From Steroidobacteraceae bacterium (GTDB lineage Bacteria > Pseudomonadota > Gammaproteobacteria > Steroidobacterales > Steroidobacteraceae), in the NCBI GenBank assembly GCA_050012215.1, contig JBEKHO010000017.1, forward strand, positions 13,888-77,887: a stretch of DNA of 64,000 nucleotides, given 5' to 3'. Position numbers and translations under genes: made by a program. The notes under the pieces are model-generated. The model searched no databases, was not told the DNA's origin, and was given only the letters and a program-made list of their open reading frames with translations. Below, piece by piece: positions 4,261 to 62,166 of the stretch. How positions within the stretch are numbered: position 1 is the first letter of the stretch; the number at the start of each line of letters is the position of its first letter.

Positions 4261-4527
4261 ATGAACAACTGGATTGCACTCGCCGCGGCATGCTGTCTGG
4301 CCGGCTGCGCATCGATGAACAACGCCCCCGCCCGCAACGACGCAGCGCCGCTTGCTGCAACGCGCGCAGGCTGCGTGAATCAGACCGGAAGCCGGATTTC
4401 CCAGGCCGGAACGGCCTGCACTGGCCCGGGACGTTCGTACTCGCAAGCCGACATCGCGAACACCGGCCAGACCACCGCCGCCGGCGCGCTCGGGTTGCTG
4501 GATCCTTCGGTCACCGTTCACCACTAA
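4261..4527 (+). CDS. small lipoprotein, unknown function
   Basis: AGGAGG RBS lies upstream. Lipobox is present (MNNWIALAAACCLAGC|AS). 88 aa. Confidence 0.6.
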   Translation: MNNWIALAAACCLAGCASMNNAPARNDAAPLAATRAGCVNQTGSRISQAGTACTGPGRSYSQADIANTGQTTAAGALGLLDPSVTVHH

Positions 4528-4544
4528 GCCGAACGCCCGCGCTG

Positions 4545-6689
4545 CTACGGCACTGCGTCCGCGAGACCCCGCTCCTTCAGCATGGCGTCGACCTTGGGCG
4601 CACGGCCACGCCATGCGGCATACATTTCTGCGAGGTCCTCGGTATTGCCTCGGGATAGGACCATATGGCGGAAGCGATCGCCGTTTGCGCGGGTCAGTCC
4701 GCCGTTTTCCTCGAACCATTGATAGGCGTCGTCCGCCAGCATTTGCGTCCAGAGGTAGGCGTAGTAGCCGGCGGAATATCCGCCCGCCCAGATGTGGCTG
4801 AAATAGGTCGAGCGATAGCGCGGCGGGACCGCCTCGAGATCGGGGTGAGTCTTGGTCAATGCCTCTTTCTGGAACACATCCGGGTCTTGCAACGGGGCGC
4901 TGGCCGGCAACATATGCCATTGCATGTCGAGCTCAGCCGCCGCCAGCAGCTCGGTCATCCGGTAGCCTGCGTTGAAATTTTTCGCGCGCTCGATCTTGTC
5001 GCTGAGCTCCTTCGGCATGACATCACCCGTTTTGTAGTGACGCGCATAGTGCTCGAAAATCTCCGGGTACGTCGCCCAGTGCTCGTTGAACTGCGAAGGA
5101 AATTCGACGAAATCCCGCGCCGTAGCCGTACCCGAGAGGCTGGGATACTGCGTGTCCGCCAGCATGCCGTGCAGTGCGTGTCCGAACTCGTGGAACATGG
5201 TCGTCACGTCGTCGAAGCTGATGAGCGCGGGCTCGCCCGGCGCAGGCTTCGGGAGATTGGCCACGTTGTAAATGACGGGACGGGCACCGAGCAGGTGCGA
5301 CTGGGTGGCAAAAGTCGACATCCACGCGCCACCATTCTTGTTGTCCCGCTTGAAGTAATCGCAATAGAACAGCGCGAGCGGTTTCCCATCGGTGTCCGAG
5401 ACCTCGAAGACGCGCACCTCGGGCTGGTACACCGGAATGCCTTTGAGCTCCTTGAAGGTGATCCCGTAGAGGCGGGTGGCCGCATAGAAGACGCCATTCA
5501 CGAGCACGTTGCCAAGCTCGAAATAGGGCTTCACTTGCGCATCGTTCAGCGCGTACTTCGCCCGGCGCACCTGCTCGCTGTAGAAGTCCCAGTCCCAGGC
5601 CTCGAGCGCGAAATGTTCTGCGCTCGAATCGATCACGGCCTGGATGTCCTTGCCCTCCCGCTCCGCCCGGGCGGTCGCCAGCGGCACGAGCGCATCCATG
5701 AATTGGAGCGCCATCTCGGGGGTCTTCGCCATTTGGTCCTTGAGCGTCCAGGACGCATGGTTCGGAAAACCAAGCAACTGCGCACGCTGGGCTCGAAGCT
5801 GGGCGAGCCGCGACACGATCGTCCGAGTATCGTTCGCATCGCCCCGCTCGGTGCGGTTCCAGGAATTCTCGAAGATCGCCTGACGCGTCGAGCGCTCGCT
5901 CAAATAGGAAAGAGCGGGCTGTTGCGTGGTGTTCTGCAGCGCGAGTACGTAGCCCTGCGAGTGTTTGGCCTGCGCGGCCAGCGCGGCGGCAGCCAGTTGT
6001 GCGTCGCTCATGCCGGCGAGCGCCGCCGGCGCCGCAGTCGCGTACGCGCCCGCCGCGTTGGCGGCCAACAGCCGCTTGGAGAAGGTATCCGATAGCGTGG
6101 AGGCCTCCCCGTTCAGTTTCTTGAGCTTTTCCTTGTCCGACTCGGAGAGTGTCGCGCCGGCGCGCACGAACTCGTCATAGGTGACCTGAACCAGCCGCTT
6201 CGATTCCGCATCGAGGCCGCTGGTCTCGCGCTTCTCGTGGACTGCGGATACGCGTGCGAACAACTTCGCATTCAGATAGATGGCGTCATATTGCGCGGCC
6301 AGCTTCGGCGCCAGCGCAGTCTTCGCTGCCTGCAGCGTCGGATCGGTATTGGCACCGGTCACGCCATGAAACGCCTGGATGGCACGGCCGAGCAGCGCAC
6401 CGCTCTTCTCCAAGGGAACCAGGGTGTTCTCGAAGGTCGGTGCGGCGGCATTCTCCGCGATCGCCCGCACCTCGGCGAGCTGTTGCGCCATCCCCGCTTC
6501 AATGGCCGGTTGATAATCCTCGTCCTTGATTTTGTCGAACGGCGGCGCATGAAAGGGCAGCGAACTCTGCGCGTAGAACGGATTGCCCGGTCCAAAGCCT
6601 GTCTTGGCCTCCGTCGCCCCATCGGCGGGTGAGACCGCCGCGGTCAATGCCGCTCCCGCCGCCAGCAGCGCGAATAAATTCTTCCGCAT
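4545..6689 (-). CDS. dcp: M3 family peptidyl-dipeptidase (Dcp-like), secreted
   Basis: 714 aa with a signal peptide (MRKNLFALLAAGAALTAAVSPADG) and the zinc motif HEFGHALH in an M3 context (FHEFGHALHGML...EFPSQ). Confidence 0.85.
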   Translation of the reverse strand: MRKNLFALLAAGAALTAAVSPADGATEAKTGFGPGNPFYAQSSLPFHAPPFDKIKDEDYQPAIEAGMAQQLAEVRAIAENAAAPTFENTLVPLEKSGALLGRAIQAFHGVTGANTDPTLQAAKTALAPKLAAQYDAIYLNAKLFARVSAVHEKRETSGLDAESKRLVQVTYDEFVRAGATLSESDKEKLKKLNGEASTLSDTFSKRLLAANAAGAYATAAPAALAGMSDAQLAAAALAAQAKHSQGYVLALQNTTQQPALSYLSERSTRQAIFENSWNRTERGDANDTRTIVSRLAQLRAQRAQLLGFPNHASWTLKDQMAKTPEMALQFMDALVPLATARAEREGKDIQAVIDSSAEHFALEAWDWDFYSEQVRRAKYALNDAQVKPYFELGNVLVNGVFYAATRLYGITFKELKGIPVYQPEVRVFEVSDTDGKPLALFYCDYFKRDNKNGGAWMSTFATQSHLLGARPVIYNVANLPKPAPGEPALISFDDVTTMFHEFGHALHGMLADTQYPSLSGTATARDFVEFPSQFNEHWATYPEIFEHYARHYKTGDVMPKELSDKIERAKNFNAGYRMTELLAAAELDMQWHMLPASAPLQDPDVFQKEALTKTHPDLEAVPPRYRSTYFSHIWAGGYSAGYYAYLWTQMLADDAYQWFEENGGLTRANGDRFRHMVLSRGNTEDLAEMYAAWRGRAPKVDAMLKERGLADAVP

Positions 6690-6711
6690 GTCGAGACTCC
6701 CGTGTGCATTC

Positions 6712-8010
6712 CTATTGCTCGTGCTTGTAGACCGTGCCTTCCTTCATGACGAAGCTGACGTGTTCCAGGACCTGGATGTCAGCCAGAGGGTCGCCTTTCA
6801 CCGCCACGATGTCGGCCGATTTGCCCGCGGCGATCGACCCGAAAAGCTCCGAATGGCCGATGAGATCCGCCGCATTGACCGTCGCGGATTGAATCGCCTG
6901 CATGGGAGTCATGCCATATTTGACCATGAACGCGAATTGCCGCGCGTTCACGCCGTGCGGGCAGACGCCGGCGTCCGTGCCGAAGGTCATCTTGACGCCC
7001 GCACGGACGGCCTTGGTGAAGTTGCGGCGCTGAAGGGCGCCGAGGTCGCGGTCGTGGGCGAGGAAATCGGCCGGCGTGTCCGGCGCGGATTGAATGCACT
7101 CCTCATCGTAGATATCCATGTCCAGATACGTACCGTGCTGTTTCGCGAGAGCGATGCCCTCGTCGTCGATGAGCGTGGCATGCTCCACGGACGCGACGCC
7201 CGCACGGATCGCATTCTTGATGCCTTCGGCAGCATGGGCGTGCGCGGCGACGCGGAGTCCGAAATTGCCTGCCTCTTCCACCGCCGCACGCAGCTCCTCG
7301 GGAGTGAATTCGATGGACTTTGGGTTGCTCCCGTGCGTGAGCACGGCGCCCGTTGAAAGCACCTTGATGTGATCCGCGCCCCGGTGCGCAAGTTCCCGGA
7401 TCTTCTGGCGAACCTCCCAGGGACCGTTCGCCACACCGTAATGCATGTCCCAGGGCAATTGAATATCGGGAGGCAGGCCGGTCATATCGCCGGCACCCTG
7501 ACTGATGGTGACATAGGCTCCCGCGACGTACATCCTCGGACCGATGAACATTCCGTTCGCAATGGCGTCGCGCATTGCCACGTCGTTGAAGGCGCGGTAC
7601 ACGCCCACGTCCCGCACCGTGGTGAAACCGGCGAGCAGGGTGACCCGCGCGTTCGGAATGGCCGCGTAGGCGGTCTCCACCGCTGAGCGCTTCAGAACGT
7701 CGAGAGGCTCCGAATACGCGAGGTCGGCGAGGTGCGTGTGGCAATCCACCAGCCCCGGCAACACGGTCATGTTGGATAAATCGATGACCTCTGCACCCTG
7801 CGGAATCGGCACATCGGGCCCGACCGCTTCGATCACCTTGCCCCGGACCAGAATGAGCTGATCGGCCACGCTCTTGCCGGCCACCACATCGATGAAGTGC
7901 CCGGCGCGAATGGCGATCACCGGGAGGGGATCGGGAGCCGGTGCGGCGCGGGACGCGGCGGCGAAGATCGCCAGCGCAAAAAACCACGAAAACAGGCTGA
8001 TTTTGCTCAC
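6712..8010 (-). CDS. amidohydrolase family metallo-hydrolase, secreted
   Basis: GTG at 8010 has a GAGGGAG RBS. Signal peptide VSKISLFSWFFALAIFAAASRAAPA. HxH metal motif LPGLVDCHTHL. Later AAHAH and HATLID motifs are typical of the COG1228-type amidohydrolase fold. Confidence 0.8.
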   Translation of the reverse strand: MSKISLFSWFFALAIFAAASRAAPAPDPLPVIAIRAGHFIDVVAGKSVADQLILVRGKVIEAVGPDVPIPQGAEVIDLSNMTVLPGLVDCHTHLADLAYSEPLDVLKRSAVETAYAAIPNARVTLLAGFTTVRDVGVYRAFNDVAMRDAIANGMFIGPRMYVAGAYVTISQGAGDMTGLPPDIQLPWDMHYGVANGPWEVRQKIRELAHRGADHIKVLSTGAVLTHGSNPKSIEFTPEELRAAVEEAGNFGLRVAAHAHAAEGIKNAIRAGVASVEHATLIDDEGIALAKQHGTYLDMDIYDEECIQSAPDTPADFLAHDRDLGALQRRNFTKAVRAGVKMTFGTDAGVCPHGVNARQFAFMVKYGMTPMQAIQSATVNAADLIGHSELFGSIAAGKSADIVAVKGDPLADIQVLEHVSFVMKEGTVYKHEQ

Positions 8011-8117: not shown

Positions 8118-9527
8118 ATGAGAATCCGAGCTTCGATGAAGGCAGCGGCGATTTCGGCCATGCTCGCCCCGGTCGTCTGCGCAGCGGCCCCCGACGAAGT
8201 CGCGTTCCGCGATCTTTATCGAGAACTCGTCGAGATCAACACGACGCGCTCGGTCGGCAGCTGTACCCAGGCTGCTGAGGCCGTGCGCGCTCGACTCCTG
8301 GCAGCGGGAATTCCCGAGGCTGACACCCGCATCCTTGCCCCGCCGGACCGCCCCGGCGACGGCGCACTGATCGCGGTGATCCACGGCCGCGATGCAAAGT
8401 CCAAACCGATCCTGCTCCTCGCTCACATCGATGTCGTGGAAGCGAAGCGCTCCGAATGGGAGCGCGATCCGTTCAAGCTCGTGGAGGAAAATGGGTGGTT
8501 CTACGCGCGTGGCGCGAGCGACGACAAGGCGATGGCGGCGGTGTTTGCGGACAGCCTGATCCGCTACCACCAGGAGGGATTCCGCCCAAGGCGCGGCCTG
8601 AAGCTTGCGCTCACCTGCGGCGAGGAAACGCCCGATGTGTTCAACAGCGTGAAGTGGCTTCTCGATACCCAGCCTGAGGTCCTGGACGCTGCATTCGCGC
8701 TCAACGAGGGCGCAGGAGGCGAGCTCGGCAAGGACGACAAGCCGGTCGCCTTGCAGATCCAAGCCGGCGAGAAGGTGTACCAGGATTTCTCGCTGGACAC
8801 CGCCGATGTGGGTGGACACAGCTCGCGTCCCACGAAGAACAATCCCATCGTGCGCCTTGCCGGCGGCCTCGCTCGTCTTGGCACCCATGATTTCCCGGTC
8901 GCGCTGAACGAGGCGACGCGCGCCTACTTCGAGGCCCAGGCGAAGCTGTCGCCTGCCGACATCGCCTCCGACATGCGGGCGGTGCTCGCGAACCCGGCGG
9001 ACGAGGCCGCCGTGGAGCGCTTATGGGCGGTGAACCCCGGCTGGAACGGGATGCTGCGCACGACCTGCGTGGCCACCGAGATCGCCGGCGGGCATGCACC
9101 TAACGCGCTTCCGCAACACGCGCATGCCAACGTCAACTGCCGGATATTGCCGAATGTGCCGATTGCCGACGTTCAGGCCGAGATCGTGAGAGTACTGGCC
9201 GACGACAAGATCACTGTCGCGCCGGTGGGAGAGCCGGGGATGCAGTCGCCCCCGCCGCCCCTCTCCGCCCGCATCATGAATCCCGTGCATGCGGTCGCCG
9301 GGCACATCTGGCCCGGCGTCGCGATCGTACCCACGATGGCGACGGGCGCCACCGATGGGCGGTTCCTGAACGCGCACGGTACGCCAACCTACGGCCTCTC
9401 GGGCATGTTCCACGATGCCGAGGGCTCGCGCGCGCACGGCTTGAACGAGCGCATCCGCGTAGTGTCGCTGACGAACGGCCGGCGATTTCTCTACGAAATC
9501 GTCAAGCTGTACGCGAACCAACCCTAG
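8118..9527 (+). CDS. M20 family metallopeptidase, secreted
   Basis: 469 aa with a signal peptide (MKAAAISAMLAPVVCAAAP). M20 motifs LLLAHIDVV and RGASDDKAM are present, with a dimerisation-domain-sized insert. Confidence 0.8.
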   Translation: MRIRASMKAAAISAMLAPVVCAAAPDEVAFRDLYRELVEINTTRSVGSCTQAAEAVRARLLAAGIPEADTRILAPPDRPGDGALIAVIHGRDAKSKPILLLAHIDVVEAKRSEWERDPFKLVEENGWFYARGASDDKAMAAVFADSLIRYHQEGFRPRRGLKLALTCGEETPDVFNSVKWLLDTQPEVLDAAFALNEGAGGELGKDDKPVALQIQAGEKVYQDFSLDTADVGGHSSRPTKNNPIVRLAGGLARLGTHDFPVALNEATRAYFEAQAKLSPADIASDMRAVLANPADEAAVERLWAVNPGWNGMLRTTCVATEIAGGHAPNALPQHAHANVNCRILPNVPIADVQAEIVRVLADDKITVAPVGEPGMQSPPPPLSARIMNPVHAVAGHIWPGVAIVPTMATGATDGRFLNAHGTPTYGLSGMFHDAEGSRAHGLNERIRVVSLTNGRRFLYEIVKLYANQP

Positions 9528-9539
9528 GCACCGGCGCTG

Positions 9540-11696
<2,157 letters not shown>

Positions 11697-11998
11697 CTCG
11701 AGGTTCCATCACAGGGTTGAACGGGGGCGCAGAGTTTGCCACGGCAGGGCGGCCGTGTCGAAAAATTGTCAATCTTATCGCTGCTTTCGCGAAGCCGGGG
11801 CGGGCCGGCAGAATGGCTGCGAAAATCATGTCAAAGTCTTAATGCCGCCTTATCGCCCGTCCTGCAGGCCCCGGCCCGCGCGCATGGCCTCACGAACCGC
11901 CTGAAGTGCCTCCCGCGGTCAACGCGCTACCGGGGCCGGCCGTTGATTGTCGAGCCCGGGCCTCGATCCCGGGGCGTCGCCGACACTTTAGGAGACCC

Positions 11999-13594
11999 GT
12001 GGACCCGCACCTCCCATCGACCGCCCCGCCCCCGTCCCAGGCCCTCATCCTGGTCGGGGCGGCGCTCGCCGTGGCCTGGATGCTGCTCGCCGGCGGTTGC
12101 GCGAATCCCGGGCCGAAAACGCCGGCGCACGCGACGGCCGCGTCGCTGCCGGTGTTCCACCGTCAGGACCTGCTGTGGCTCGAACGCGTCAGCTTCGGTA
12201 TCGACGCCGAAAGCGTGGGCGCATTGCATCGCCTCGGGCGCGAGCGCTATCTGGACCGGCAACTGCGCGGCCCGCAGGCTCCCTTTCCCGCCCCGCTCGG
12301 CGCCGAACTTGCGAACCTGGTCGCCGCGCGCCCCGATCCGGAGCGCGTGCTCGCTGATCTGTCCGCCGAATACAAGCGGATCAACGCCATGCCGGATGGG
12401 GCCGACAAGGAGCAGGCCAGAAAGGCATTGAATGATGAGGGCAACAAGCTCGCCAACCAGGCAATCCGCGAGGAGCTGTTACGGGCGGTCTATGCGCCGT
12501 CCCAGCTCGACGAACAGATGGTCTGGTTCTGGCTCAATCACTTCAGCGTCCATCAATACAAGGCCAATCTTCGCTGGCTCGTCGGCGACTACGTCGACCG
12601 GGCGATCCGGCCGCATGCGCTCGGCCATTTCAAGGACTTGGTGCTCGCCACGCTCGAGCATCCCGCCATGCTGCAATATCTGGACAACAATCAAAACGCC
12701 GTCGGACACATCAACGAGAATTACGCCCGCGAACTCATGGAGCTGCATACGTTGGGGGTGCATGGCGGCTACACGCAACAGGACGTGCAGCAACTCGCTC
12801 GCGTGCTCACCGGCGTCGGGATCAGCGCAGTAGATCCGCCGAAGCTCAAGCGCGAGTGGCAGAATCTGTATCGGCGCGATGGCGCATTCGAGTTCAACCC
12901 GGCGCGCCACGATTTCGGCGATAAGCTCCTGCTCGGCCGAACCATCAAGGGCCGCGGCTTCGACGAAGTGGACGAGGCCGTCGGCTTGATCGTGAGGCAG
13001 CCCGCCTGTGCCCGCTTCATCTCCCGCGAGCTCGCGCGCTACTTCGTCGCCGACGATCCACCCGCGCGCCTGGTGGATCGCATGACGCAGACTTTCATGC
13101 GCTCGGACGGCGACATTGCGCAAGTGCTGCGCGAGATGTTGCTCGCACCCGAGCTCGACGCGGCGCTCGGCGGCAAGTTCAAAGACCCCATGCGCTTCGT
13201 GGTCTCCTCGGTGCGTTTTGCCTACGACGGACGCACGATCAGCAATACCCGGCCGATGCTGAACTGGCTGAACGGCCTCGGGGAGGCGCCTTTCGGCCGG
13301 GCGACTCCCGATGGGTACCCGTTGACCGAACTCGCCTGGGCGAGTTCCGGTCAGATGAGCCGCAGGTTCGAGATCGCGCGCGCGATCGGCTCCGGCAGCG
13401 CCGGCCTGTTCGACGGGGAGGACGGCACCTCGCCCGGCGGCGCGGGCGGATTTCCGCAACTCTCCAACCGACTGTACTATGAGGCCGTTGAGCCGTTTCT
13501 CGGCGCGGGCGCAAGAGACGCCCTGGCGCGCGCCAACTCGCAGCAGGAGTGGAACACTTTTCTGCTGGCCTCGCCCGATTTCAACTACGAGTGA
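11999..13594 (+). CDS. DUF1800 domain protein (lipoprotein signal)
   Basis: GTG at 11999 lies 5 nt after an AGGAG RBS. Lipobox MLLAGGC. Family-typical motifs WFWLNHFSV and MELHTLGVHGGYTQQDVQQLARVLTG. ORF track start 11906 is a possible alternative. Confidence 0.8.
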   Translation: MDPHLPSTAPPPSQALILVGAALAVAWMLLAGGCANPGPKTPAHATAASLPVFHRQDLLWLERVSFGIDAESVGALHRLGRERYLDRQLRGPQAPFPAPLGAELANLVAARPDPERVLADLSAEYKRINAMPDGADKEQARKALNDEGNKLANQAIREELLRAVYAPSQLDEQMVWFWLNHFSVHQYKANLRWLVGDYVDRAIRPHALGHFKDLVLATLEHPAMLQYLDNNQNAVGHINENYARELMELHTLGVHGGYTQQDVQQLARVLTGVGISAVDPPKLKREWQNLYRRDGAFEFNPARHDFGDKLLLGRTIKGRGFDEVDEAVGLIVRQPACARFISRELARYFVADDPPARLVDRMTQTFMRSDGDIAQVLREMLLAPELDAALGGKFKDPMRFVVSSVRFAYDGRTISNTRPMLNWLNGLGEAPFGRATPDGYPLTELAWASSGQMSRRFEIARAIGSGSAGLFDGEDGTSPGGAGGFPQLSNRLYYEAVEPFLGAGARDALARANSQQEWNTFLLASPDFNYE

Positions 13595-13607
13595 GAGGAG
13601 CGATTCG

Positions 13608-14813
13608 ATGAAACGTCGTCACGCATTGCAATGGGGCTTTGCGGCGCTCCTCGGTGCCGCGTCCGGCCCGGCCCGCCTGTTCGCCGCGCCGGCGAGCGGT
13701 CCGCGGTTCCTGCTCGTGTTCTTGCGGGGCGGCTACGATTCCACGAATTTCTTGATCCCGTACTCGAGCGACTTCTATTACGAATCCCGCCCGAACATCG
13801 CCATCGCCCGTCCCGATTCCGCCTCGACCACGGGCGCGCTCGCCTTGAATGCCGACTGGGCGCTCGCCCCCGCCGTACGGGAAACCATCGGCGCCCTGTA
13901 TCTGCAGCGGCAGGCGGCATTCATCCCCTTCGCGGGCACGGATGATCTGTCGCGCAGCCATTTCGAGACTCAGGACAGCATCGAGTTGGGACAACCGTCC
14001 GCAAGCGCACGCAATTACCGCTCCGGGTTTCTCGGCCGCTTGGCGCAGACGCTCGGCGGCACCGCCCCGGAGCCCGACCCCATCGCCTTCACGGACGCGT
14101 TGCCGCTCGCCTTCGAGGGAGCCTCCACGGTGCCGAACCTGTCGCTCAAGAACATCGGCAAACCGCCGTTCGACGAGCGCCAGGCGCGAATCCTGAACGA
14201 CATGTACGCCGGCCACCATCTCGAGACGGCAGTGCGCGACGGTTTGGATCTTCGTCAGGAAGTCGCCCAAAAGATCGCGCAGGAGATGCTCTCGGCGAGC
14301 CGCAGTGCCGTCAACACCAAGGGGTTCGAGCTCGAAGCCGAACGCATGGCACGGCTCATGCGCGACAAGTATCGGGTTGGCTTCGTCGACGTCGGCGGCT
14401 GGGACACCCACGTCGGCGAGGGTGCTTCCCAGGGTCCGCTTGCCGCAAACCTCGCGAGTCTCGGCCGCGGCCTGCAGGTGTTTGCTCAGACACTCGGCAC
14501 CGAATGGAACAACACCGTCGTCGTCGTGGTCTCTGAATTCGGCCGCACGTTCCGTGAGAACGGCAACCGTGGTACCGATCACGGGCACGGCTCGGTGTAT
14601 TGGGTGCTCGGCGGATCCGTCCGGGGAGGCACCGTGGCGGGCGAGCAGCGCCCCGTCAACCGCGCCAACCTGCTGCAGGATCGGGATTTTCCGGTCTTGA
14701 ACGACTATCGGGCGGTGCTCGGCGGCCTGTTCCGATCGATGTGGGGCCTTTCGGCCGTACAATGCGATGCGGTGTTCGCGCAGGTTCGACCGCTGGATCT
14801 CAAGCTCGTTTAG
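13608..14813 (+). CDS. DUF1501 domain protein (sulfatase/alkaline-phosphatase-like fold), Tat-type signal
   Basis: ATG at 13608 follows a GAGGAG RBS. N-terminus is MKRRHALQWGFAALLGAASG. Motifs GGWDTH, SEFGRT and GTDHGHG are typical of DUF1501. It immediately follows DUF1800, which is the usual pairing. Confidence 0.85.
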   Translation: MKRRHALQWGFAALLGAASGPARLFAAPASGPRFLLVFLRGGYDSTNFLIPYSSDFYYESRPNIAIARPDSASTTGALALNADWALAPAVRETIGALYLQRQAAFIPFAGTDDLSRSHFETQDSIELGQPSASARNYRSGFLGRLAQTLGGTAPEPDPIAFTDALPLAFEGASTVPNLSLKNIGKPPFDERQARILNDMYAGHHLETAVRDGLDLRQEVAQKIAQEMLSASRSAVNTKGFELEAERMARLMRDKYRVGFVDVGGWDTHVGEGASQGPLAANLASLGRGLQVFAQTLGTEWNNTVVVVVSEFGRTFRENGNRGTDHGHGSVYWVLGGSVRGGTVAGEQRPVNRANLLQDRDFPVLNDYRAVLGGLFRSMWGLSAVQCDAVFAQVRPLDLKLV

Positions 14814-55632: not shown

Positions 55633-57134
55633 TCGCCGTGAGCAACCCGCACCGCCATACCCGAACCGCCCCGCTGAGTGTCGTCTTGATGGCGTTGCTC
55701 CTCGCGTCGTGCACCGTCGGACCGAACTTCGTTGCGCCCAAACCGCAGACCCCCGAACATTGGTCGGCTCCGGTTGCCGCCGACACATCCGCGCCGACGG
55801 GCAGCCTGCACGAGCAGCCCGCGCAGCTCGGCGCCTGGTGGAATGTGTTTCAGGACCCGGTGCTCAGCTCGCTGATCGAGCGAGGGCTCAACGCCAATCT
55901 GGACTTGCGTGCCGCGGTGTTGCGGGTCGAGGAGGCACGCACCCAGCGCGCGATCGCAGCGGCAGGCTACTGGCCTTCCATCACCGCCGACGCGTCCTAC
56001 AGCCGACAACGGTTGAGTGAGACCACACCCACCGGCTCGCTGTTCAACTCGATCGGCAACGTTCGACTGCCCGGCGGAGCCGGCATCAGCATCCCCAATC
56101 CCTACAATCAGTTTCAGTTGAGCGCCGACGCCAGCTGGGAACTGGATCTGTTTGGCCGCGTGCGCCGCTCGGTGGAGGCCGCGGACGCCTCCGTTCAAGT
56201 CTCGGTGGAGGATCAGCGATTGGTCCGTGTCTCCGTGCTTGCCGATGTGGCGCAAAGCTATACCGAGCTTCGCGGCGCGCAGGCGCGGCTTCGAGTAGCC
56301 AGGGAGAACCTCGCCACCATCGAGGAGCTGCTCGACCTGACGCGGCAGCGGCGTGCGGCGGGACTGACCACCCACATCGACGTGAGCAATGCGACCGCTG
56401 AGGCGACCGCGACCCGCGCCGAGCTGCCCTCCTTCGAGCTTCAAATCACCCAGAACATCAATCAGCTGAGCAAGCTCCTCGCTCGCGAACCCGAGGCGCT
56501 GCGCGGCGAACTCGGGACGCCCGCACCCGTACCTTCCGTGCCCCGAGATGTCTCCATCGGACTGCCCGCCGAGCTGGCGCGCCGCCGGCCAGATATCCGC
56601 GAGGCCGAGGCGAACCTGCACGCCGCCACCGCACAGATCGGCGTCGCCGTGGCGGACCTCTTTCCCCGGCTTACGCTGTCCGCAATGGGGGGCTTTCAAT
56701 CCGAGACCACGGACAATCTGCTGAGCTGGGCCAGCCGCTTTGGCTCGTTCGGACCCGCCCTCGATCTGCCCGTGCTCGATCGCGGGCGCTGGAAGACGGT
56801 GCGCCTGTACAACGTACGGGCCCGGGAATCCGCCCTCGCCTATCAGCGCACGGTGTTGAACGCCTTGCACGAAGTCGAGAACTCGGCGGCCGCGTATCAC
56901 GCGGACCTGGAGCGGCGCACCTGGCTCGATGCGACGGTCGCAGAGAATCGTGACGCATTGATGCTGTCGCGTCAGCGCTATGAGAACGGGGTCATCACCT
57001 TCATCGACGTACTGGATGTCGAGCGCACGCTGCAGCAGAACGAGCTCTCGCTCGCCGACAGCACCACCGCGGCCAGCGCGGATCTCGTGGGGCTGTACCG
57101 CGCGCTCGGCGGGGGCTGGGAGCCGCCTCCCTAG
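55629..57134 (+). CDS. NodT/OprM-family outer membrane factor lipoprotein
   Basis: ATG at 55629 (ATGA overlap). Lipobox LLLASC followed by TVGPNF. Typical OMF repeats (DLRAAVLRVEEAR..., PDIREAEANLHAA...) and ending LYRALGGGW. Confidence 0.9.
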   Translation: MIAVSNPHRHTRTAPLSVVLMALLLASCTVGPNFVAPKPQTPEHWSAPVAADTSAPTGSLHEQPAQLGAWWNVFQDPVLSSLIERGLNANLDLRAAVLRVEEARTQRAIAAAGYWPSITADASYSRQRLSETTPTGSLFNSIGNVRLPGGAGISIPNPYNQFQLSADASWELDLFGRVRRSVEAADASVQVSVEDQRLVRVSVLADVAQSYTELRGAQARLRVARENLATIEELLDLTRQRRAAGLTTHIDVSNATAEATATRAELPSFELQITQNINQLSKLLAREPEALRGELGTPAPVPSVPRDVSIGLPAELARRRPDIREAEANLHAATAQIGVAVADLFPRLTLSAMGGFQSETTDNLLSWASRFGSFGPALDLPVLDRGRWKTVRLYNVRARESALAYQRTVLNALHEVENSAAAYHADLERRTWLDATVAENRDALMLSRQRYENGVITFIDVLDVERTLQQNELSLADSTTAASADLVGLYRALGGGWEPPP

Positions 57135-58582
57135 CCTGACCCTGCGCGAACTTGCTGCGCCCAATCGGAGGCCGTCGTATCGACCCGAATGACGCAGGCT
57201 TCTTCCTCGGGTGTCAGCGTCTCCATCCGATCGAGCTGCGTCTCGAGCACGGCGACATCGGCATCCGAGGGATCGAGGGCCGAGCGAGCACCGATGCGGC
57301 GGATCAGTTCAGCCTTGGTTGCCATGCACGCAATGATCGAGAAACCGACCTGCCGACGAGCCGCCAGCGCGCGAAATGCCTGCCGATCGGCCAGATTCAG
57401 GAAACTCGCATCGACGATGGTGCAGAGGCCGGCGGCCAGCGAGGTTTCCGCGCAGTCCGCCAAATGCCGATACACCCGTTCACGCGCCTCGGCAGCATAG
57501 AGGTCCGCGGTCCCCGAGCCCAGGCGCTTGCGCTCCAGATCCGAGCGCATTCGAATGGCGCCGAGCATCGACACGAGACGCGCGCTCAACCAGGATTTCC
57601 CGGACCCGGACGCGCCATGCATGATGTAGAGGGTCGGCCTCGGCGGAGAGGTAAATTCCATCGCCGTGCGCGTCCGGGCGAGGAACCGGTCGGTGAGAGC
57701 GCGCGCATCCGCCGGCCGTTGCTCGGCGCTGAGCGCGTCGACCATGGCGCGGACCAAGGCCCGATACACCGCATGGAAGGTGAGCGTCTGCACCCCGGCA
57801 TAATCACCGCTGGCTTCCAAGTAGCTGCTCAGCAGTTGCGATGCCAGATCCTTGCGCTGGTAACTGCTGAGATCCATATAAAGAAATGCGATATCGCTCA
57901 TCACGTCGATGAAGCGCAGGTTGGGATCGAATTCCAGACAATCGAAGGGTGTGAGACGGCCCTCCCAGCGCACGATGTTCGAGGCATGCAGATCGCCGTG
58001 ACACTCGCGCACGAAGCCGCGCGCCTGCCGCTCGGCGAACACCGGCAACAGATCGTGCAGTTCGTCGTGCGTCCAGTCGCTCAGATGCCCGAGCTCCGGC
58101 ACTTTCGTGCTCGCGGGGAGGTGCGCGATGAGCGTTGCCAGATTGCCGAGCACCGATTGGCGCAGATGCCGCTGGTAGTCGAACTCGCCGGCCGCGGCGG
58201 CTAGCGCCGCACTCTCGTGGAATTGCGCCAAGCGCTCAGCCAGCGCCGCGATCTCGGCGTTGCTCACGTCCTCCCGTCCGAGCAATGAAGGCAACTCCTC
58301 GGACGCGTCGAACTGGCGCATTTTCACGGCATAGTCGACGATGGGTCCGGAGCCCCCGACGCGCAAACCCTGCGCGTCACGGGTCACCGTCACTACATCC
58401 AGGTACAGGTCCGGAGCCAGGCGCCTGTTGAGCCTGACCTCCTCCTGACAAAGCATGTGGCGATGCGACAAGCTCGTCATGTCCAGAAATTCGAGTTTGA
58501 CGGGCTTTTTCAACTTGTAGCTGAAATCGCCCGTGAGGATCACCCAGGAGACATGCGTCTCATGCAACCGGATCTCGCCCAC
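57131..58582 (-). CDS. bifunctional aminoglycoside-phosphotransferase-like kinase / P-loop (AAA_33-type) ATP-binding protein
   Basis: 483 aa with a GTG start. N-terminal half ETHVSWVILTGDFSYKLKKPV...HGDLHASNIV (APH/protein-kinase-like catalytic loop). C-terminal half has Walker A HGASGSGKSWLS. Confidence 0.8.
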   Translation of the reverse strand: MGEIRLHETHVSWVILTGDFSYKLKKPVKLEFLDMTSLSHRHMLCQEEVRLNRRLAPDLYLDVVTVTRDAQGLRVGGSGPIVDYAVKMRQFDASEELPSLLGREDVSNAEIAALAERLAQFHESAALAAAAGEFDYQRHLRQSVLGNLATLIAHLPASTKVPELGHLSDWTHDELHDLLPVFAERQARGFVRECHGDLHASNIVRWEGRLTPFDCLEFDPNLRFIDVMSDIAFLYMDLSSYQRKDLASQLLSSYLEASGDYAGVQTLTFHAVYRALVRAMVDALSAEQRPADARALTDRFLARTRTAMEFTSPPRPTLYIMHGASGSGKSWLSARLVSMLGAIRMRSDLERKRLGSGTADLYAAEARERVYRHLADCAETSLAAGLCTIVDASFLNLADRQAFRALAARRQVGFSIIACMATKAELIRRIGARSALDPSDADVAVLETQLDRMETLTPEEEACVIRVDTTASDWAQQVRAGSG

Positions 58583-58642
58583 CGGGTGTGGGTACGCGGA
58601 CGGCCGAAGGAGTTGTTGAATATCGATAGTCGGCGCCGCCGA

Positions 58643-59062
58643 TTACCGGCTTCCATGTCCTGGAAAGTATTCGCGCACTTTGACGGTGATCTGCGGATCG
58701 GTCATTTTGTCCGCCGTTTCCACCCCGGCAACTCGCCCGCCGAGCTTATGCTTGTCGAGACGCTTCTTGAGTTCCCCCTTGGCCTCCCCCGGACCGAATA
58801 TCACCAAGGCATCCACGTCGCCGAGCGCAGCGATCACCGCATCGTAGTAGCCGTCGAGCTTTCCCGTAAAAGACCTTTGACGCCGGTCGTCCGCGGGCAC
58901 TTGACGCGCCTCGTAGGGACCTTTCAGGGGGGAGTCGCCCTCCCGCTCCGGGTGTTTTTCTACGTGTGACTCGAGATGGGTCGTTCGCACCTCCTCGGTG
59001 GGCCCGAGCAACACGATCACCGCATTTCGATGATCGATCCAAACGCCGCCTTTACCGCTCAT
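58643..59062 (-). CDS. small eRF1/Pelota-like (host-attachment-protein / baeRF-like) protein
   Basis: ATG at 59062, 139 aa. Matches host-attachment-protein-like proteins in N-terminal strand VWIDHRNAVIVLL, basic middle region, and YYDAVIAALGDVDALVIFGPGEAKGELKKRL...ETADKMTDPQI. The assignment is by eye only. Confidence 0.45.
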   Translation of the reverse strand: MSGKGGVWIDHRNAVIVLLGPTEEVRTTHLESHVEKHPEREGDSPLKGPYEARQVPADDRRQRSFTGKLDGYYDAVIAALGDVDALVIFGPGEAKGELKKRLDKHKLGGRVAGVETADKMTDPQITVKVREYFPGHGSR

Positions 59063-59245
59063 CGCACTCTCCTTATTGGCGCCAGTATCTTCGGTTTGCC
59101 GGCAACAAGGATAAGGGATTTCGCGTAGGACGCATCCGCCCTTTCGGGGACTGCCGCAGCGCAACCGGTAGAATTCCTGATATCGCCCAGATCACGAAAA
59201 ACGACAATTGCCAAGAAACCCGCACCCAGAGGCTCGCCGGCGGCA

Positions 59246-59578
59246 ATGCAGCCCACCTTGACCCTGACATTTAGACACGTCGCGCGCTCCGCCGCCATGG
59301 AGGCCCATGCCCGGGATGTGGCGTCGAGACTGCAGCGCATCGAGGAGCTCATCAGCCGATGCCACATGACGATGGAGAGCCTCGCGGGCGGTGCGTATGC
59401 GGAGCCCACCTACCTGGTGAAAATCGAATTGACCGTGCCGGGCGCACAGATTCACGCCGACAGCTTGCGCGCCGACAGCAGTGGCCATGCCAGCCTCTAC
59501 CAGGCCATGCGAGAGGCTTACGACAATGCCAGGCGCCAGCTGCATCATTTGCGCAGCGACCGGGCGAGGCCGTCTTGA
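59246..59578 (+). CDS. hpf: HPF/RaiA family ribosome hibernation factor (short form)
   Basis: 110 aa. Colinear with S30EA/HPF proteins: LTLTFRHVARSAAMEAHARDVASRLQRIEELISRCHMTME...YLVKIELTVPGAQIHADS...SLYQAMREAYDNARRQL. Confidence 0.8.
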   Translation: MQPTLTLTFRHVARSAAMEAHARDVASRLQRIEELISRCHMTMESLAGGAYAEPTYLVKIELTVPGAQIHADSLRADSSGHASLYQAMREAYDNARRQLHHLRSDRARPS

Positions 59579-59594: not shown

Positions 59595-60038
59595 ATGAGA
59601 GCCGATACCGAAATCCGTTCCGACATGGAGTCGCAATTGCTACGCGACGCGAGCATCGCCGACAGCGTGATTGGTGTGATAGTCCGCAGCGGCATCGTGA
59701 CGCTGACCGGCGAGGCGGGACATTACGGCGCCAAATGGGCCGCCGAAGAAGTGGCCAAGCGCGTCGCCGGCGTCCGGGCGATCGCAAACGAAATCCACGT
59801 CAAGCTTCACGAGCACGGAGCGCCGAGCGATACCGACATCGCGGAGGCCGTCGCCAACGCGCTCAGCAACACTCCGGCTTCGGACGGCATTCAATGCGTC
59901 GTGCAGAACGGGATCGTCACCTTGAGCGGCCACGCGCCTGGCGGCGGCGATCAGAGAAGCGCCGTCGAGAATGCCGTGCGCCGCCTGACGGGAGTCAAAG
60001 GCGTCCTGAACTCCATCATGACGGTGACCGCGTCTTAG
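59595..60038 (+). CDS. BON domain protein (two BON domains, no signal peptide)
   Basis: ATG at 59595 follows a GAAGGAG RBS, 17 nt after the hpf stop. Two copies of the pattern V.V.NG.VTLSG....W....A...VAGV..I.N.I.V. Confidence 0.8.
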   Translation: MRADTEIRSDMESQLLRDASIADSVIGVIVRSGIVTLTGEAGHYGAKWAAEEVAKRVAGVRAIANEIHVKLHEHGAPSDTDIAEAVANALSNTPASDGIQCVVQNGIVTLSGHAPGGGDQRSAVENAVRRLTGVKGVLNSIMTVTAS

Positions 60039-60047
60039 ATTTGGCGC

Positions 60048-60563
60048 TCACAGCGTGAGCGAGTAGATGAGCTGATTGGAATCGCTCGGATCGCGCAGCG
60101 ACTTCATGCCCAGTCCCCTTGCGAGCGCTGCCATTGCCGTGTTGCTCGCCAGATCGATCGAATATAACTGCCTGACTCCCTTCGCTTTTGCGGCCTCGAT
60201 GAGGTGCCTCATCAACACCAAGCCGAGTCCCTTGTGCTGCCACTCGTCCGCCACGGTGATGGCGATTTCGCGCACATCCGCCTCGGAATCCTGTGCATAG
60301 CGGCTGACTCCGATCTCCAACTCCCGATCTGCGCGGCGCACCGTGGCAACGAAGGCCATGGTGTGGTTGCCGTCGACATCGCACAGACGTTTCAGCTCGT
60401 CGGGGGGTAATTCGCTCACCCCGCCGAGGAATCGGAAGTGCTTGCTATCCGGGGATAGACGCCGGATGAAGTCCCTCTCCATGTCCACATCGCTCTTGCG
60501 TATGGGCCGGACGGTCACCGTCTCCCCCGCTATCATCGGATAAAGCTCCTCGCTCATGATCAC
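60048..60563 (-). CDS. stand-alone Pat-type GNAT (probable protein lysine acetyltransferase)
   Basis: 171 aa. TVRPIRKSDVDMERDFIRRLSPDSKHFRFLGGVSELPPDELKRLCDVDGNHTMAFVA...ADEWQHKGLGLVLMRHL matches, by eye, the C-terminal GNAT domain of Pat-like acetyltransferases. Confidence 0.65.
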   Translation of the reverse strand: MIMSEELYPMIAGETVTVRPIRKSDVDMERDFIRRLSPDSKHFRFLGGVSELPPDELKRLCDVDGNHTMAFVATVRRADRELEIGVSRYAQDSEADVREIAITVADEWQHKGLGLVLMRHLIEAAKAKGVRQLYSIDLASNTAMAALARGLGMKSLRDPSDSNQLIYSLTL

Positions 60564-60695: not shown

Positions 60696-61613
60696 ATGGC
60701 CGGATATAAGTTGAATCGGATTCTCGTCGCGGTCGCCGATCCTTTGTCAGGTTTGAACAAGGCGGTCCGGCGTGCGCGAGCCCTTGCGCACCAGACGGGT
60801 GCCATCGTTGATTTATTCAACGCAATAGCGTCCTCCGTCTCCACCGGCATACTGCACGCCGAGTCAGAGCACTTCACGCGTTTGGAGGCGGAGCAGCATC
60901 GCCGGCTCCTCGAGCGGACGGCGAACCGGTTGCGTCGCGAAGAGATCATCGTCAACACCAAAGTCGAGACCGGATACCCGGTTCACGAGGCGATCCTGCG
61001 TGAGGTGCAACTCACCAAAGCGGATCTTTTGATCATCGAAGCGCGCAAGCACAGTGCCATCGCGCGCTTGCTGCTCACACAGACCGACTTCGAACTGATC
61101 CGGCACTGTCCGATTCCGCTGCTGATAGTCAAAGGGAACACCGCGTGGCGCAAGCCACACATCCTGGCGGCGCTGGACCCATTTCACGTCCACGATAAGC
61201 CGAGCGGATTGGATGACCAGATCGTGGATGCGGCGCGCACCTTTGCCACTCAGGTGGGTGGTTCCGTGCACGCCGCGCACATCTATCGTCCGCTCCTCGG
61301 CTTTGTTCCCGATCTTGCGGGCGCCACCGTGCTCACGACGATGCCGGAAAGCGACAAGAAATATAAGGCCACGGTTCGCCGACGGTTCTACGAGGCCATC
61401 GATCGATACGGTATCGCAAGAAGCAAGACGCATCTGGTGTGCGGCGATCCGGCGCCCGCGCTTGCGGCCGTCGCGCGCTCGATGCGGGCCGGCCTGATCG
61501 TCATCGGAGCAACGTCTCGCTCGGGCCTGAAGAGAGTCTTCATCGGCAACACCGCCGAGCGGGTGCTCGATGGCCTGAAGTGCGACGTCTTGGTCGTAAA
61601 GCCGCGCAGGTGA
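60696..61613 (+). CDS. tandem-domain universal stress protein
   Basis: 305 aa with two UspA domains. The second carries the ATP motif GATSRSGLKRVFIGNTAERV. Confidence 0.85.
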   Translation: MAGYKLNRILVAVADPLSGLNKAVRRARALAHQTGAIVDLFNAIASSVSTGILHAESEHFTRLEAEQHRRLLERTANRLRREEIIVNTKVETGYPVHEAILREVQLTKADLLIIEARKHSAIARLLLTQTDFELIRHCPIPLLIVKGNTAWRKPHILAALDPFHVHDKPSGLDDQIVDAARTFATQVGGSVHAAHIYRPLLGFVPDLAGATVLTTMPESDKKYKATVRRRFYEAIDRYGIARSKTHLVCGDPAPALAAVARSMRAGLIVIGATSRSGLKRVFIGNTAERVLDGLKCDVLVVKPRR

Positions 61614-61635: not shown

Positions 61636-62133
61636 CTACGCCGCGGAGGCCTTGAGCGGCGGGCGTTTGGCCGCATCACCGCGCGGTTGCGGCACTCCCC
61701 GAACCAGCAGGACCGGCACCGAAGCGGAGCGCACCACCTCTTCGGCATCGCTCCCCATCGCGACCCGCGCGAGTCCGCGCCGCCCGTGGGTTCCCATGAC
61801 GATCAGCTCCGCGCCCCATTCATTGGCCTGCGCGACGATCAGATCCGCCGCCCTGCCGCCCATCGATTCGAGCATGATGCATTCGGGGGTGATTCCCTCC
61901 GCCTGAACGGCGGCTTTCGCGCGCTCCAAGACGCTGCTTCCGCCCTTGCGCAGAAGCTCGATGACGTCCGTCGCATACACCCCCGAGCCGTAGGCGTAGT
62001 CCAGCACGAACTCGTTGACGAAATGCACCAGGCGAATCTGCCCGCCGACGCATTTCGCAATCTTGACCGCCTCCTTGAGGCCGAGGGCCGAGGTCTCGCT
62101 TCCGTCAACAGGAACCAGTATCTTGCCGTACAT
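61636..62133 (-). CDS. universal stress protein (single domain)
   Basis: ATG at 62133 (MYGKILVPVDGSETS...). ATP motif GTHGRRGLARVAMGSDAEEV. Confidence 0.85.
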   Translation of the reverse strand: MYGKILVPVDGSETSALGLKEAVKIAKCVGGQIRLVHFVNEFVLDYAYGSGVYATDVIELLRKGGSSVLERAKAAVQAEGITPECIMLESMGGRAADLIVAQANEWGAELIVMGTHGRRGLARVAMGSDAEEVVRSASVPVLLVRGVPQPRGDAAKRPPLKASAA

Positions 62134-62166
62134 AGGGTCTTCCTCTCCGTACCGAAATCTTTCCGA

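Follow-up and report, generated by a model that had tools for sequence, protein, structure and literature searches.

A predicted stand-alone middle domain of the aeRF1 superfamily, related to Balon, Pelota and eRF1, encoded in a stress island of a Steroidobacteraceae bacterium

The subject of this study is a small gene in a 64,000-nucleotide stretch of DNA from a Steroidobacteraceae bacterium (GenBank assembly GCA_050012215.1, contig JBEKHO010000017.1, positions 13,888–77,887; hereafter the window), which lies divergently from a gene of the HPF/RaiA family and upstream of a two-domain kinase-like gene. Its product of 139 amino acids (aa) is very probably a stand-alone middle domain of the aeRF1 superfamily, and our confidence in this fold and superfamily is high but short of complete because the grounds are mainly structural. 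It would be a single-domain bacterial aeRF1 (baeRF-1-type) relative of Balon, Pelota and eRF1, possessing neither the codon-recognition N domain nor the GTPase-binding C domain. The small gene is real and strongly conserved, and its kind of family was catalogued by computer in 2019; what distinguishes it from the known stand-alone baeRF-1 kind is a highly conserved loop that sits where the GGQ loop would be, but without the GGQ motif itself.

Results

The small gene

The gene and those parts of it that carry the argument are located in the window as follows.

58643–59062, reverse strand: 139-aa gene, predicted stand-alone aeRF1-superfamily middle (RF-PH, RNase-H-like) domain (open reading frame, homologues, AlphaFold2, Foldseek)
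59069–59074, reverse strand: Shine-Dalgarno sequence AAGGAG, with a 6-nt spacer to the ATG at 59062 (sequence)
58886–58969, reverse strand: conserved 28-aa loop, codons 32–59, from strand 3 to helix 1 (low confidence in the model, conservation)
58772–58795, reverse strand: GPGEAKGE turn, codons 90–97, from strand 4 to helix 2 (most conserved motif of the family)

The original prediction had placed the open reading frame at 59062–58643, with a 183-bp divergent spacer to an HPF gene and a kinase gene 60 nt downstream, all of which was confirmed. The N-termini of 38 homologues, which begin MSGKGG, agree with the ATG at 59062. Since these N-termini coincide with MSGKGG and do not match the start of a longer 173-aa open reading frame beginning with TTG, the longer frame was rejected as unsupported. 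An antisense open reading frame on the forward strand (58457–58969), with equivalents in 56 loci, was likewise rejected as a by-product of sense-strand conservation.

Fold and superfamily

The AlphaFold2 model, made with 38 homologues, has a mean predicted local distance difference test (pLDDT) score of 82 and a predicted TM-score (pTM) of 0.79. Three strands are followed by the 28-aa loop, which is modelled with lower confidence, and then by helix 1, strand 4, helix 2, strand 5 and helix 3, an order that is RNase-H-like; DSSP assigns strands to residues 3–9, 13–19, 25–31, 83–90 and 111–116 of the model, and helices to residues 60–80, 92–104 and 122–132. The layout that had been claimed from the sequence agrees with the model, with VWIDHRNAVIVLL falling in strands 1 and 2, the "charged middle" corresponding to the 28-aa loop, and DALVIFGPGEAKGELKKRL making up strand 4 and helix 2.

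When the model was searched against the PDB with Foldseek, ranks 1–26 were all aRF1, eRF1, Pelota/Dom34 or Balon (E 1.7e-6 to 9e-4; query TM-scores 0.44–0.61, most of them 0.5–0.6), including the 70S-bound Balon proteins Rv2629 and Msmeg1130. The next match was ribosomal protein uS11, which belongs to the same SCOP superfamily as the eRF1/Pelota-type domains. In BFVD, an independent library, the top five matches were eRF1s of giant viruses, and RuvC-type nucleases appeared only at E ≥ 1e-3, after all of the eRF1 matches. These top matches in two libraries, together with co-linear sub-threshold matches in Pfam, uphold the proposal that the protein is a homologue of the eRF1/Pelota central domain.

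At the level of sequence, the profile A1 had a single match among PDB sequences, which was to the Thermoplasma Pelota 2qi2 at YYDxV...ILGPG (E 0.053). Individual Pfam scans of 117 diverse members returned baeRF_family10 (n = 10), eRF1_2 (n = 8) and baeRF family5 (n = 4), and more rarely family12 (n = 2), family2 (n = 2) and family11 (n = 1). All of these eRF1_2 and baeRF matches are sub-threshold, yet they are co-linear along most of the domain; member P0185, for example, aligns residues 9–106 with positions 7–109 of the 133 in the eRF1_2 profile (E 6.7e-4). The best match to eRF1_2 (PF03464) has an E value of 5.8e-4 and about 20 bits against a cut-off of 27.1, and the best baeRF matches are those to family10 (E 0.0018) and family5 (E 0.0017), with families 12, 2 and 11 weaker and cut-offs of about 27 bits. 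The window protein itself had no significant match in Pfam, NCBIfam, PADLOC or PDB sequences (no eRF1_2 at E ≤ 1), and the majority-consensus sequence of the family had none in Pfam. Membership of any current Pfam baeRF model was rejected, as none was matched above threshold, and the protein therefore represents an unmodelled family, or a family that lacks a Pfam model.

The host attachment proteins (PF10116) are small, similar in size and also eRF1-like. Membership of this family, which had been proposed originally, was not borne out, as the window protein has no match to PF10116 at E ≤ 1 and the family is not among the 25 listed when the 117 members were scanned at E ≤ 10.

Two further assignments were tried and not adopted. 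Four conserved acidic residues, D10, D59, E93 and D118, occupy or adjoin the canonical RNase-H-like positions, as they might in an RNase-H-type nuclease; human eRF1, which is not a nuclease, is likewise acidic there (IVID, GSADFK, LVD), and the RuvC matches are weaker. The Rossmann unit of FSP1/AIFM2 was the top PDB sequence match of the profile A2 (E 0.003), with the NAD(P)H-binding region falling on family-profile residues 70–133 (window ~58664–58855, reverse strand). This was judged to be a generic Gly-rich beta-alpha-beta resemblance because no FSP1-type protein is among the Foldseek matches listed.

Conserved residues and the loop at the GGQ position

Across 117 representatives with 37–59% identity, the invariant or near-invariant residues are G6-x-W8-I9-D10-H11, A14 and S32 in the N-terminal part and, further on, Y72 (Tyr or Phe in all), Y73, G90-P-G-E-A-K-x-E97 and D118-K-M-T-x-x-Q124, with G90 invariant (117/117). 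Judging from the model, the most conserved residues appear to sit at or just past the C-terminal ends of strands 1, 3, 4 and 5. The GPGEAKGE turn is the part that profile A1 aligned with ILGPGFARDRF of the Thermoplasma Pelota, and it is comparable to LAGSADFKTEL of human eRF1.

The 28-aa loop, by its position between strand 3 and helix 1, occupies the topological site of the GGQ loop of eRF1 and of the lasso loop of Balon. In the subfamily of the window protein it reads S-x-V-E-K-H-x-x-R-x-G-D-S-P-L-K-G-x-Y-E-x-x-Q-V-P-x-D-D, followed by x-R-Q, and its mean column identity over 81 species is 0.79, compared with 0.67 for strands 1–3. Eight residues of the loop are invariant in A1 (H37, R40, G42, D43, G48, Q54, D58 and D59), and two arginines, R61 and R63, are conserved where the next helix begins. 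Both hhalign and Smith-Waterman pair R-E-G-D-S-P-L-K with R-G-G-Q-S-A-L-R of eRF1, an alignment that is not significant and that puts an Asp opposite the catalytic Gln. The GGQ motif was found in none of the 117 members, and the loops of the wider family contain "GG" in 28/117 and "GD[S...]" in 17/117.

Family size and distribution

The small protein has 3,980 homologue clusters (90% clustering) at E ≤ 1e-3 among 5.8 billion proteins, all of which are unnamed or called "hypothetical protein", apart from one apparent WrbA mis-annotation, and none of which carries a Pfam domain. A search of 1.84 billion representatives at 50% identity with the family profile gave 2,865 matches at E ≤ 1e-3, and 1,431 at E ≤ 1e-10. 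The members are mostly stand-alone proteins, being 120–170 aa long in nearly all of the 150 representatives listed, and in most of these the profile match covers almost the whole protein.

Fusions are rare (P0136, 252 aa; P0144, 214 aa; P0186, 269 aa); in two of them a low-complexity linker leads to a C-terminal DUF2934 domain, and in the other a CBM48/AMPK glycogen-binding module is present at the N-terminus. DUF2934 is also encoded by a gene of its own next to the kinase gene in loci L001–L003 of the genome comparison (L001 8805–9071). Searches of the full-text literature for the motifs GPGEAK and WIDHR, and for the function of DUF2934, found nothing relevant.

In a survey of one genome per species, at least 549 stretches held a relative of the small protein, the best 80 of which share 54–71% identity with it. 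The record titles of these 80 name Gammaproteobacteria (Steroidobacteraceae), Deltaproteobacteria, Acidobacteriota, Planctomycetota, Cyanobacteria, Chloroflexia, Actinomycetes, Bipolaricaulota, Lentisphaerae, NC10, Gemmatimonadetes and others; phyla were taken from these titles, and some labels of metagenome-assembled genomes (MAGs) are doubtful. The MAG contigs L022 ("Bacteroidales") and L023 ("Gammaproteobacteria") agree both in gene order around the small gene and in the 16-mer upstream of it, and at least one of their two labels is therefore unreliable. Locus L020 contains a second, partial copy of the gene (6055–6339), 1.7 kb upstream of the full copy and on the same strand.

In cultured cyanobacteria the gene is present on three plasmids, with 39–57% identity and the name "hypothetical protein" from the Prokaryotic Genome Annotation Pipeline (PGAP), something that fits lateral mobility. 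Two of the plasmid loci are those of Nostoc sp. UHCC 0870 (L085, 6057–8411) and of Pseudanabaena galeata plasmid pPg_02 (L086, 5299–9254); one copy adjoins IS1634 transposase and DnaJ/CbpM genes, and the other lies between sucrose synthase and PRC-barrel genes. These cultured cyanobacteria are tractable hosts.

Genomic neighbourhood

The features that surround the small gene in the window are listed below.

59063–59245, strand not applicable: divergent intergenic region of 183 bp between the small gene and the HPF-BON pair (sequence)
59246–59578, forward strand: short 110-aa HPF/RaiA-family paralogue (Pfam Ribosomal_S30AE)
59595–60038, forward strand: OsmY-like protein with two BON domains, 16 nt after the HPF gene (Pfam BON, E 6.8e-25, two stretches)
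57131–58582, reverse strand: 483-aa two-domain kinase-like protein, 60 nt downstream of the small gene (Pfam)
60048–60563, reverse strand: GNAT acetyltransferase, island member (Pfam Acetyltransf_1 and Acetyltransf_3)
60696–61613, forward strand: tandem universal stress protein (Usp), island member (Pfam Usp, E 3.4e-38, two stretches)
61636–62136, reverse strand: single-domain Usp, island member (Pfam Usp, E 6.7e-29)

The 110-aa HPF matches Ribosomal_S30AE above threshold (E 7.6e-10; 39.8 bits, cut-off 23.7) and is regarded as a divergent short paralogue because its score against the NCBIfam equivalog yfiA (18.9 bits) is under the cut-off of 40.9. The BON gene that follows is probably co-transcribed with it. 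In the kinase-like protein, the sole significant Pfam match is to a C-terminal AAA_33 P-loop kinase domain (E 2.7e-27, 96 bits), and the N-terminal 260 aa have sub-threshold matches to APH (E 0.0053; 17.0 bits, cut-off 23.2), TCAD9 (E 0.0013; 18.4 bits, cut-off 40) and EcKL, which give a weak indication of an APH/kinase-like fold in that half. A defence-system reading based on the weak TCAD9 match was rejected, as there is no PADLOC match and there are no conflict-system neighbours. The stress island of the window has ABC exporters on either side.

Consensus scans and Rfam returned no sigma-70 consensus promoter, terminator or Rfam family in the other intergenic regions or in the 183-bp spacer, through which the small gene and HPF might be co-regulated, as originally proposed. 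In one gammaproteobacterial sub-clade a 16-mer, GATACGTAGTTTCCAC, is found 90–105 nt upstream of the start of the small gene. It is exact in L008 (6318–6333), L010 (7890–7905), and L022 and L023 (both 7902–7917), occurs with one to four mismatches in L033, L017, L027 and L007, and is related to TACGCGAAATCC of the window (59116–59127, reverse strand). Most of the loci that bear it also have a -10-like hexamer, CATACT or CATAAT, at about -29 to -43. Shuffled upstream regions never came within two mismatches of GATACGTAGTTTCCAC, a possible binding site for a regulator of the stress island.

Neighbourhoods were compared across 81 species loci, up to 8 kb on either side, using hidden Markov models built for this analysis, so that the counts are lower bounds. 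Within 8 kb, LuxR-type response regulators were present in 24/81 loci, Usp in 20/81, BON in 19/81, Hsp20 in 14/81, Band-7 in 11/81 and P-type ATPases in 10/81; at least one of HPF, BON, Usp and Hsp20 was present in 32/81. BON genes, nine of which are within 500 bp and which are found in several nominal phyla, are the commonest immediate neighbour. The kinase (7/81) and HPF (6/81) were found in close gammaproteobacterial relatives only. No conserved operon partner emerged from de novo clustering of all open reading frames in the 81 loci or from Pfam annotation of 118 immediate neighbours, among which BON was found seven times, two-component proteins three times, and Usp, HPF, Band_7, nitroreductase, Crp-type regulators and PRC-barrel twice each. 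The Pfam-annotated contigs add PAS-histidine kinases, CHAD, ATP-dependent DNA ligase and CBS-BON proteins.

The link to HPF that had been proposed from the window holds in part. In the window, as in its closest relatives, HPF is the divergent neighbour of the small gene, and it recurs in other arrangements (L005, L006, L011, L029 and L091), giving at least three and about four independent ones, yet it is missing from the neighbourhood of most loci. On the rough assumption of one or two hpf genes per 4–5 Mb genome, an hpf gene would fall within 16 kb by chance in about 0.5% of loci, and HPF is therefore enriched around the small gene, though in a minority of loci. The linkage is probably real but facultative.

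The order and strand of the kinase relative to the small gene differ between loci. The small gene is followed by the kinase in the window, in its closest relatives (L087 and L088) and in L082; in L005 and L006 an HPF-Usp-kinase string runs divergently from the small gene, in L001 the order differs again in that the small gene is followed by a Usp gene and a convergent kinase, and in L008, L027 and L033 the kinase is 4–7 kb away. The small gene is best described as a stand-alone gene carried in stress/dormancy islands of varying composition, and not as half of a kinase module.

The distance from the kinase gene to a Usp gene is no more than about 150 bp in L001 (6591–8674), L005 and L006 (both 4404–7465) and L008 (11766–13851), and 0.6–1.3 kb in L033 and L027. 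The kinase may have a Usp protein as its real partner or substrate. An ATP-dependent DNA ligase gene is located about 120 bp upstream of the small gene in L089 and about 3.5 kb downstream of it in L091 (10952–11827), and an N-type ATPase operon (AtpR, ATPase_gene1) is also nearby in L089, where these features fall at 5950–6882 and 9391–14483.

Discussion

Proposed role

The bacterial aeRF-1 (baeRF-1) clade was defined by Burroughs and Aravind (2019), who described several families with a conserved HPF neighbourhood, found that versions without flanking domains are usually without the catalytic Gln and unconstrained in loop length, and predicted that HPF-linked stand-alone baeRF-1 domains have a non-catalytic, A-site-blocking role (PMC6514570). 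Three-domain members (Balon, Rv2629 and Msmeg1130) are hibernation factors, and the neighbours of Balon genes include RaiA, Hsp20 and OsmY, a BON-domain protein; homologues of under 300 aa, 806 in one survey of Balon and 1,422 in the other, were dropped (Helena-Bueno et al., 2024; PMC10901736). The middle domain of Balon touches the peptidyl-transferase centre via a loop equivalent to that of the small protein. The original prediction had described such families as catalogued computationally, with no experimental function known for the pairing seen in the window, and this is accurate (PMC6514570; PMC10901736); in the literature, no paper was found that tests a single-domain member.

Ribosome binding by the small protein is plausible, and a ribosome-directed, non-catalytic role, the reading preferred here, has in our judgement about an even chance of being correct. 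The gene would be a stress gene of monocistronic type in a stress/dormancy island that also holds a short HPF, an OsmY-like BON protein, a GNAT acetyltransferase, Usp proteins and an APH/AAA_33 kinase. Under stress, we infer, its product would dock at the large-subunit side of the ribosomal A site, where the conserved 28-aa loop (KHxxRxGDSP...QVPxDD) and the arginine-bearing helix could reach toward the peptidyl-transferase centre and make contacts with rRNA. It might then serve as a non-catalytic plug of the A site/peptidyl-transferase centre, silencing or protecting ribosomes alongside HPF.

Several observations weigh against this interpretation. No Pfam model reaches threshold for the family, and homology judged on sequence by itself is statistically weak: with the M domain of human eRF1, the sequence of which was checked against the PDB, hhalign of A1 and A2 gave E values of 0.15 and 0.4, which are not significant, and Smith-Waterman alignment with shuffles gave z = 0.36. 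The small protein is not basic, having an isoelectric point (pI) of 7.0 compared with a family median of 8.5. In the wider family the loop takes up 10–26 residues over the stretch equivalent to residues 33–57, and a mechanism that depends on the loop may therefore be specific to the subfamily. HPF is nearby in only 6/81 loci, and the immediate neighbours are heterogeneous. Lastly, as the N and C domains are absent, so are the decoding-centre and EF-Tu contacts that anchor Balon, and the affinity for the ribosome is uncertain for this reason.

Alternative explanations

The protein may not be directed at the ribosome and may instead be a stress-regulon protein that binds a nucleotide, a small ligand or another protein via the edge formed by WIDH, S32, GPGEAK and DKMT. 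In the model W8, D10, H11, S32, G90-P-G-E-A-K and D118-K-M-T would lie at or just after the C-terminal ends of strands, which is typical of a ligand site; eRF1, however, has the same pattern in GSADFKTEL without binding a nucleotide. The NAD(P)H-binding beta-alpha-beta unit of FSP1/AIFM2, which supplied the best PDB sequence matches of A2, points in the same direction, but the match spans just 62 residues of a generic Gly-rich unit. A neutral pI and fusions to CBM48/AMPK (one) and DUF2934 (two), with none to a translation domain, would also suit ligand binding. The top Foldseek matches in both libraries, on the other hand, are exclusively of release-factor type, and only one kinase, AnmK, appears in the PDB list, in 44th place (E 2.4e-3). 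On balance we regard a role away from the ribosome as unlikely.

For Vms1/ANKZF1, which also belongs to the aeRF1 superfamily, there are reports of peptidyl-tRNA hydrolase activity and of tRNA nuclease activity. A catalytic variant of the ribosome-directed role would make the small protein a one-domain rescue factor like ArfB or Vms1, with an active-site loop derived from the GGQ loop that brings about peptidyl-tRNA hydrolysis, or cleavage of the tRNA 3' end or of rRNA, on stalled or dormant ribosomes. The loop is at least as conserved as the structural core across 12 or more nominal phyla, and two alignment methods pair its R-x-G-D-S with R-G-G-Q-S of eRF1. This pairing, however, lacks statistical significance, places an Asp where the catalytic Gln would be, and comes from a family with GGQ in 0/117 members. 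A narrow range of loop lengths within a family accompanies catalysis according to Burroughs and Aravind (PMC6514570), whereas the loop of the wider family is altered or shortened, to as few as 10 residues over the equivalent of 33–57. Catalysis is therefore considered quite improbable.

It is very doubtful that the protein regulates a translational GTPase such as EF-Tu, by mimicking the contact that the Pelota/eRF1 middle domain makes with aEF1alpha, Hbs1 or eRF3. Stable binding of EF-Tu(GTP) to Pelota/aeRF1 does need extra middle-domain contacts (PMC10901736), and identities of 54–71% across phyla would suit a partner as conserved as EF-Tu. The main GTPase interface of Pelota, eRF1 and Balon is, however, the C domain, which the small protein lacks, and no tuf or other GTPase gene is linked to it in the 81 loci.

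The dedicated module of two genes that had been proposed from the window, in which the small protein would detect ribosomes and either recruit the APH/AAA_33 kinase or be its substrate, is highly improbable and is largely refuted by the lack of conserved linkage: the same-strand, 60-nt arrangement in the window, with no predicted terminator, and the shared order in L087, L088 and L082 are set against a kinase that occurs in so few loci, all of them close relatives, that changes order and strand between them, that adjoins Usp in most arrangements and that has no PADLOC match.

Significance

The central idea, a stand-alone domain of this kind acting at the A site, was published in 2019; yet the family is large, invisible to Pfam and NCBIfam, and present in cultured cyanobacteria. 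Single-domain versions were predicted in 2019 and filtered from the 2024 Balon survey, and with this family the ability of a bare middle domain to act on ribosomes could be tested cleanly. Binding of such a domain to the A site/peptidyl-transferase centre would make it a minimal hibernation or rescue factor, and would reveal how much of Balon, eRF1 and Pelota suffices to recognise the ribosome. A failure to bind ribosomes would correct an inference about stand-alone baeRF domains that has been widely propagated. It is also conceivable, though we give this little credence, that the KHxxRxGDSP...QVPxDD loop is a functional replacement of the GGQ loop, and that the single domain is self-sufficient and catalytically active; this would be the smallest aeRF1-derived enzyme, with a new chemistry in which Asp stands for Gln.

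Comparison with known systems

Among the systems that resemble the small protein, the host attachment family (PF10116) has no profile match to the window protein. In Bradyrhizobium, "host attachment protein" genes are induced by microoxia, and one of them lies beside Usp and CBS genes (PMC6515984), a parallel that concerns a different Pfam family.

Like the middle domain of Pelota/Dom34, the small protein has a loop without GGQ, predicted to be non-catalytic, and a GPG-x-x-K turn. Pelota, however, has three domains and acts together with Hbs1/aEF1alpha and ABCE1, no part of which shows linkage to the small gene. With the middle domain of eRF1/aRF1 (PF03464), which is the best structural match, the small protein shares the fold, the hhhD of strand 1, the start of the loop (K-H-x-R-x-G-x-S) and the pattern hhhhGxx[DE]xKxEL at strand 4 and helix 2. 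It differs in having xGD in place of GGQ, in the absence of N and C domains and in being bacterial, and the pairwise similarity is not significant.

Balon (Rv2629, Msmeg1130 and YocB) is similar in the structure of its middle domain (8v9k_z, E 8.7e-5), in the absence of GGQ, in having RaiA/HPF, Hsp20 and OsmY-type BON neighbours, and in its stress/dormancy context. It has three domains and 362–375 aa in the solved mycobacterial structures, as opposed to the 139 aa and single middle domain of the small protein, and its features include an HP motif at the decoding centre, the lasso loop, the bL27 trap and an EF-Tu-binding C domain.

The stand-alone baeRF-1 proteins also consist of the core domain only, without GGQ, and the small protein shares with them the unconstrained loop length seen across its wider family, in a minority of loci an HPF/YfiA neighbourhood, conserved positive residues in the helix after the loop, and a patchy distribution among phyla that suggests lateral transfer. 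It differs from them in that no Pfam baeRF model (2, 5, 10, 11 or 12) is matched at threshold and in that the loop of its own subfamily is strongly conserved.

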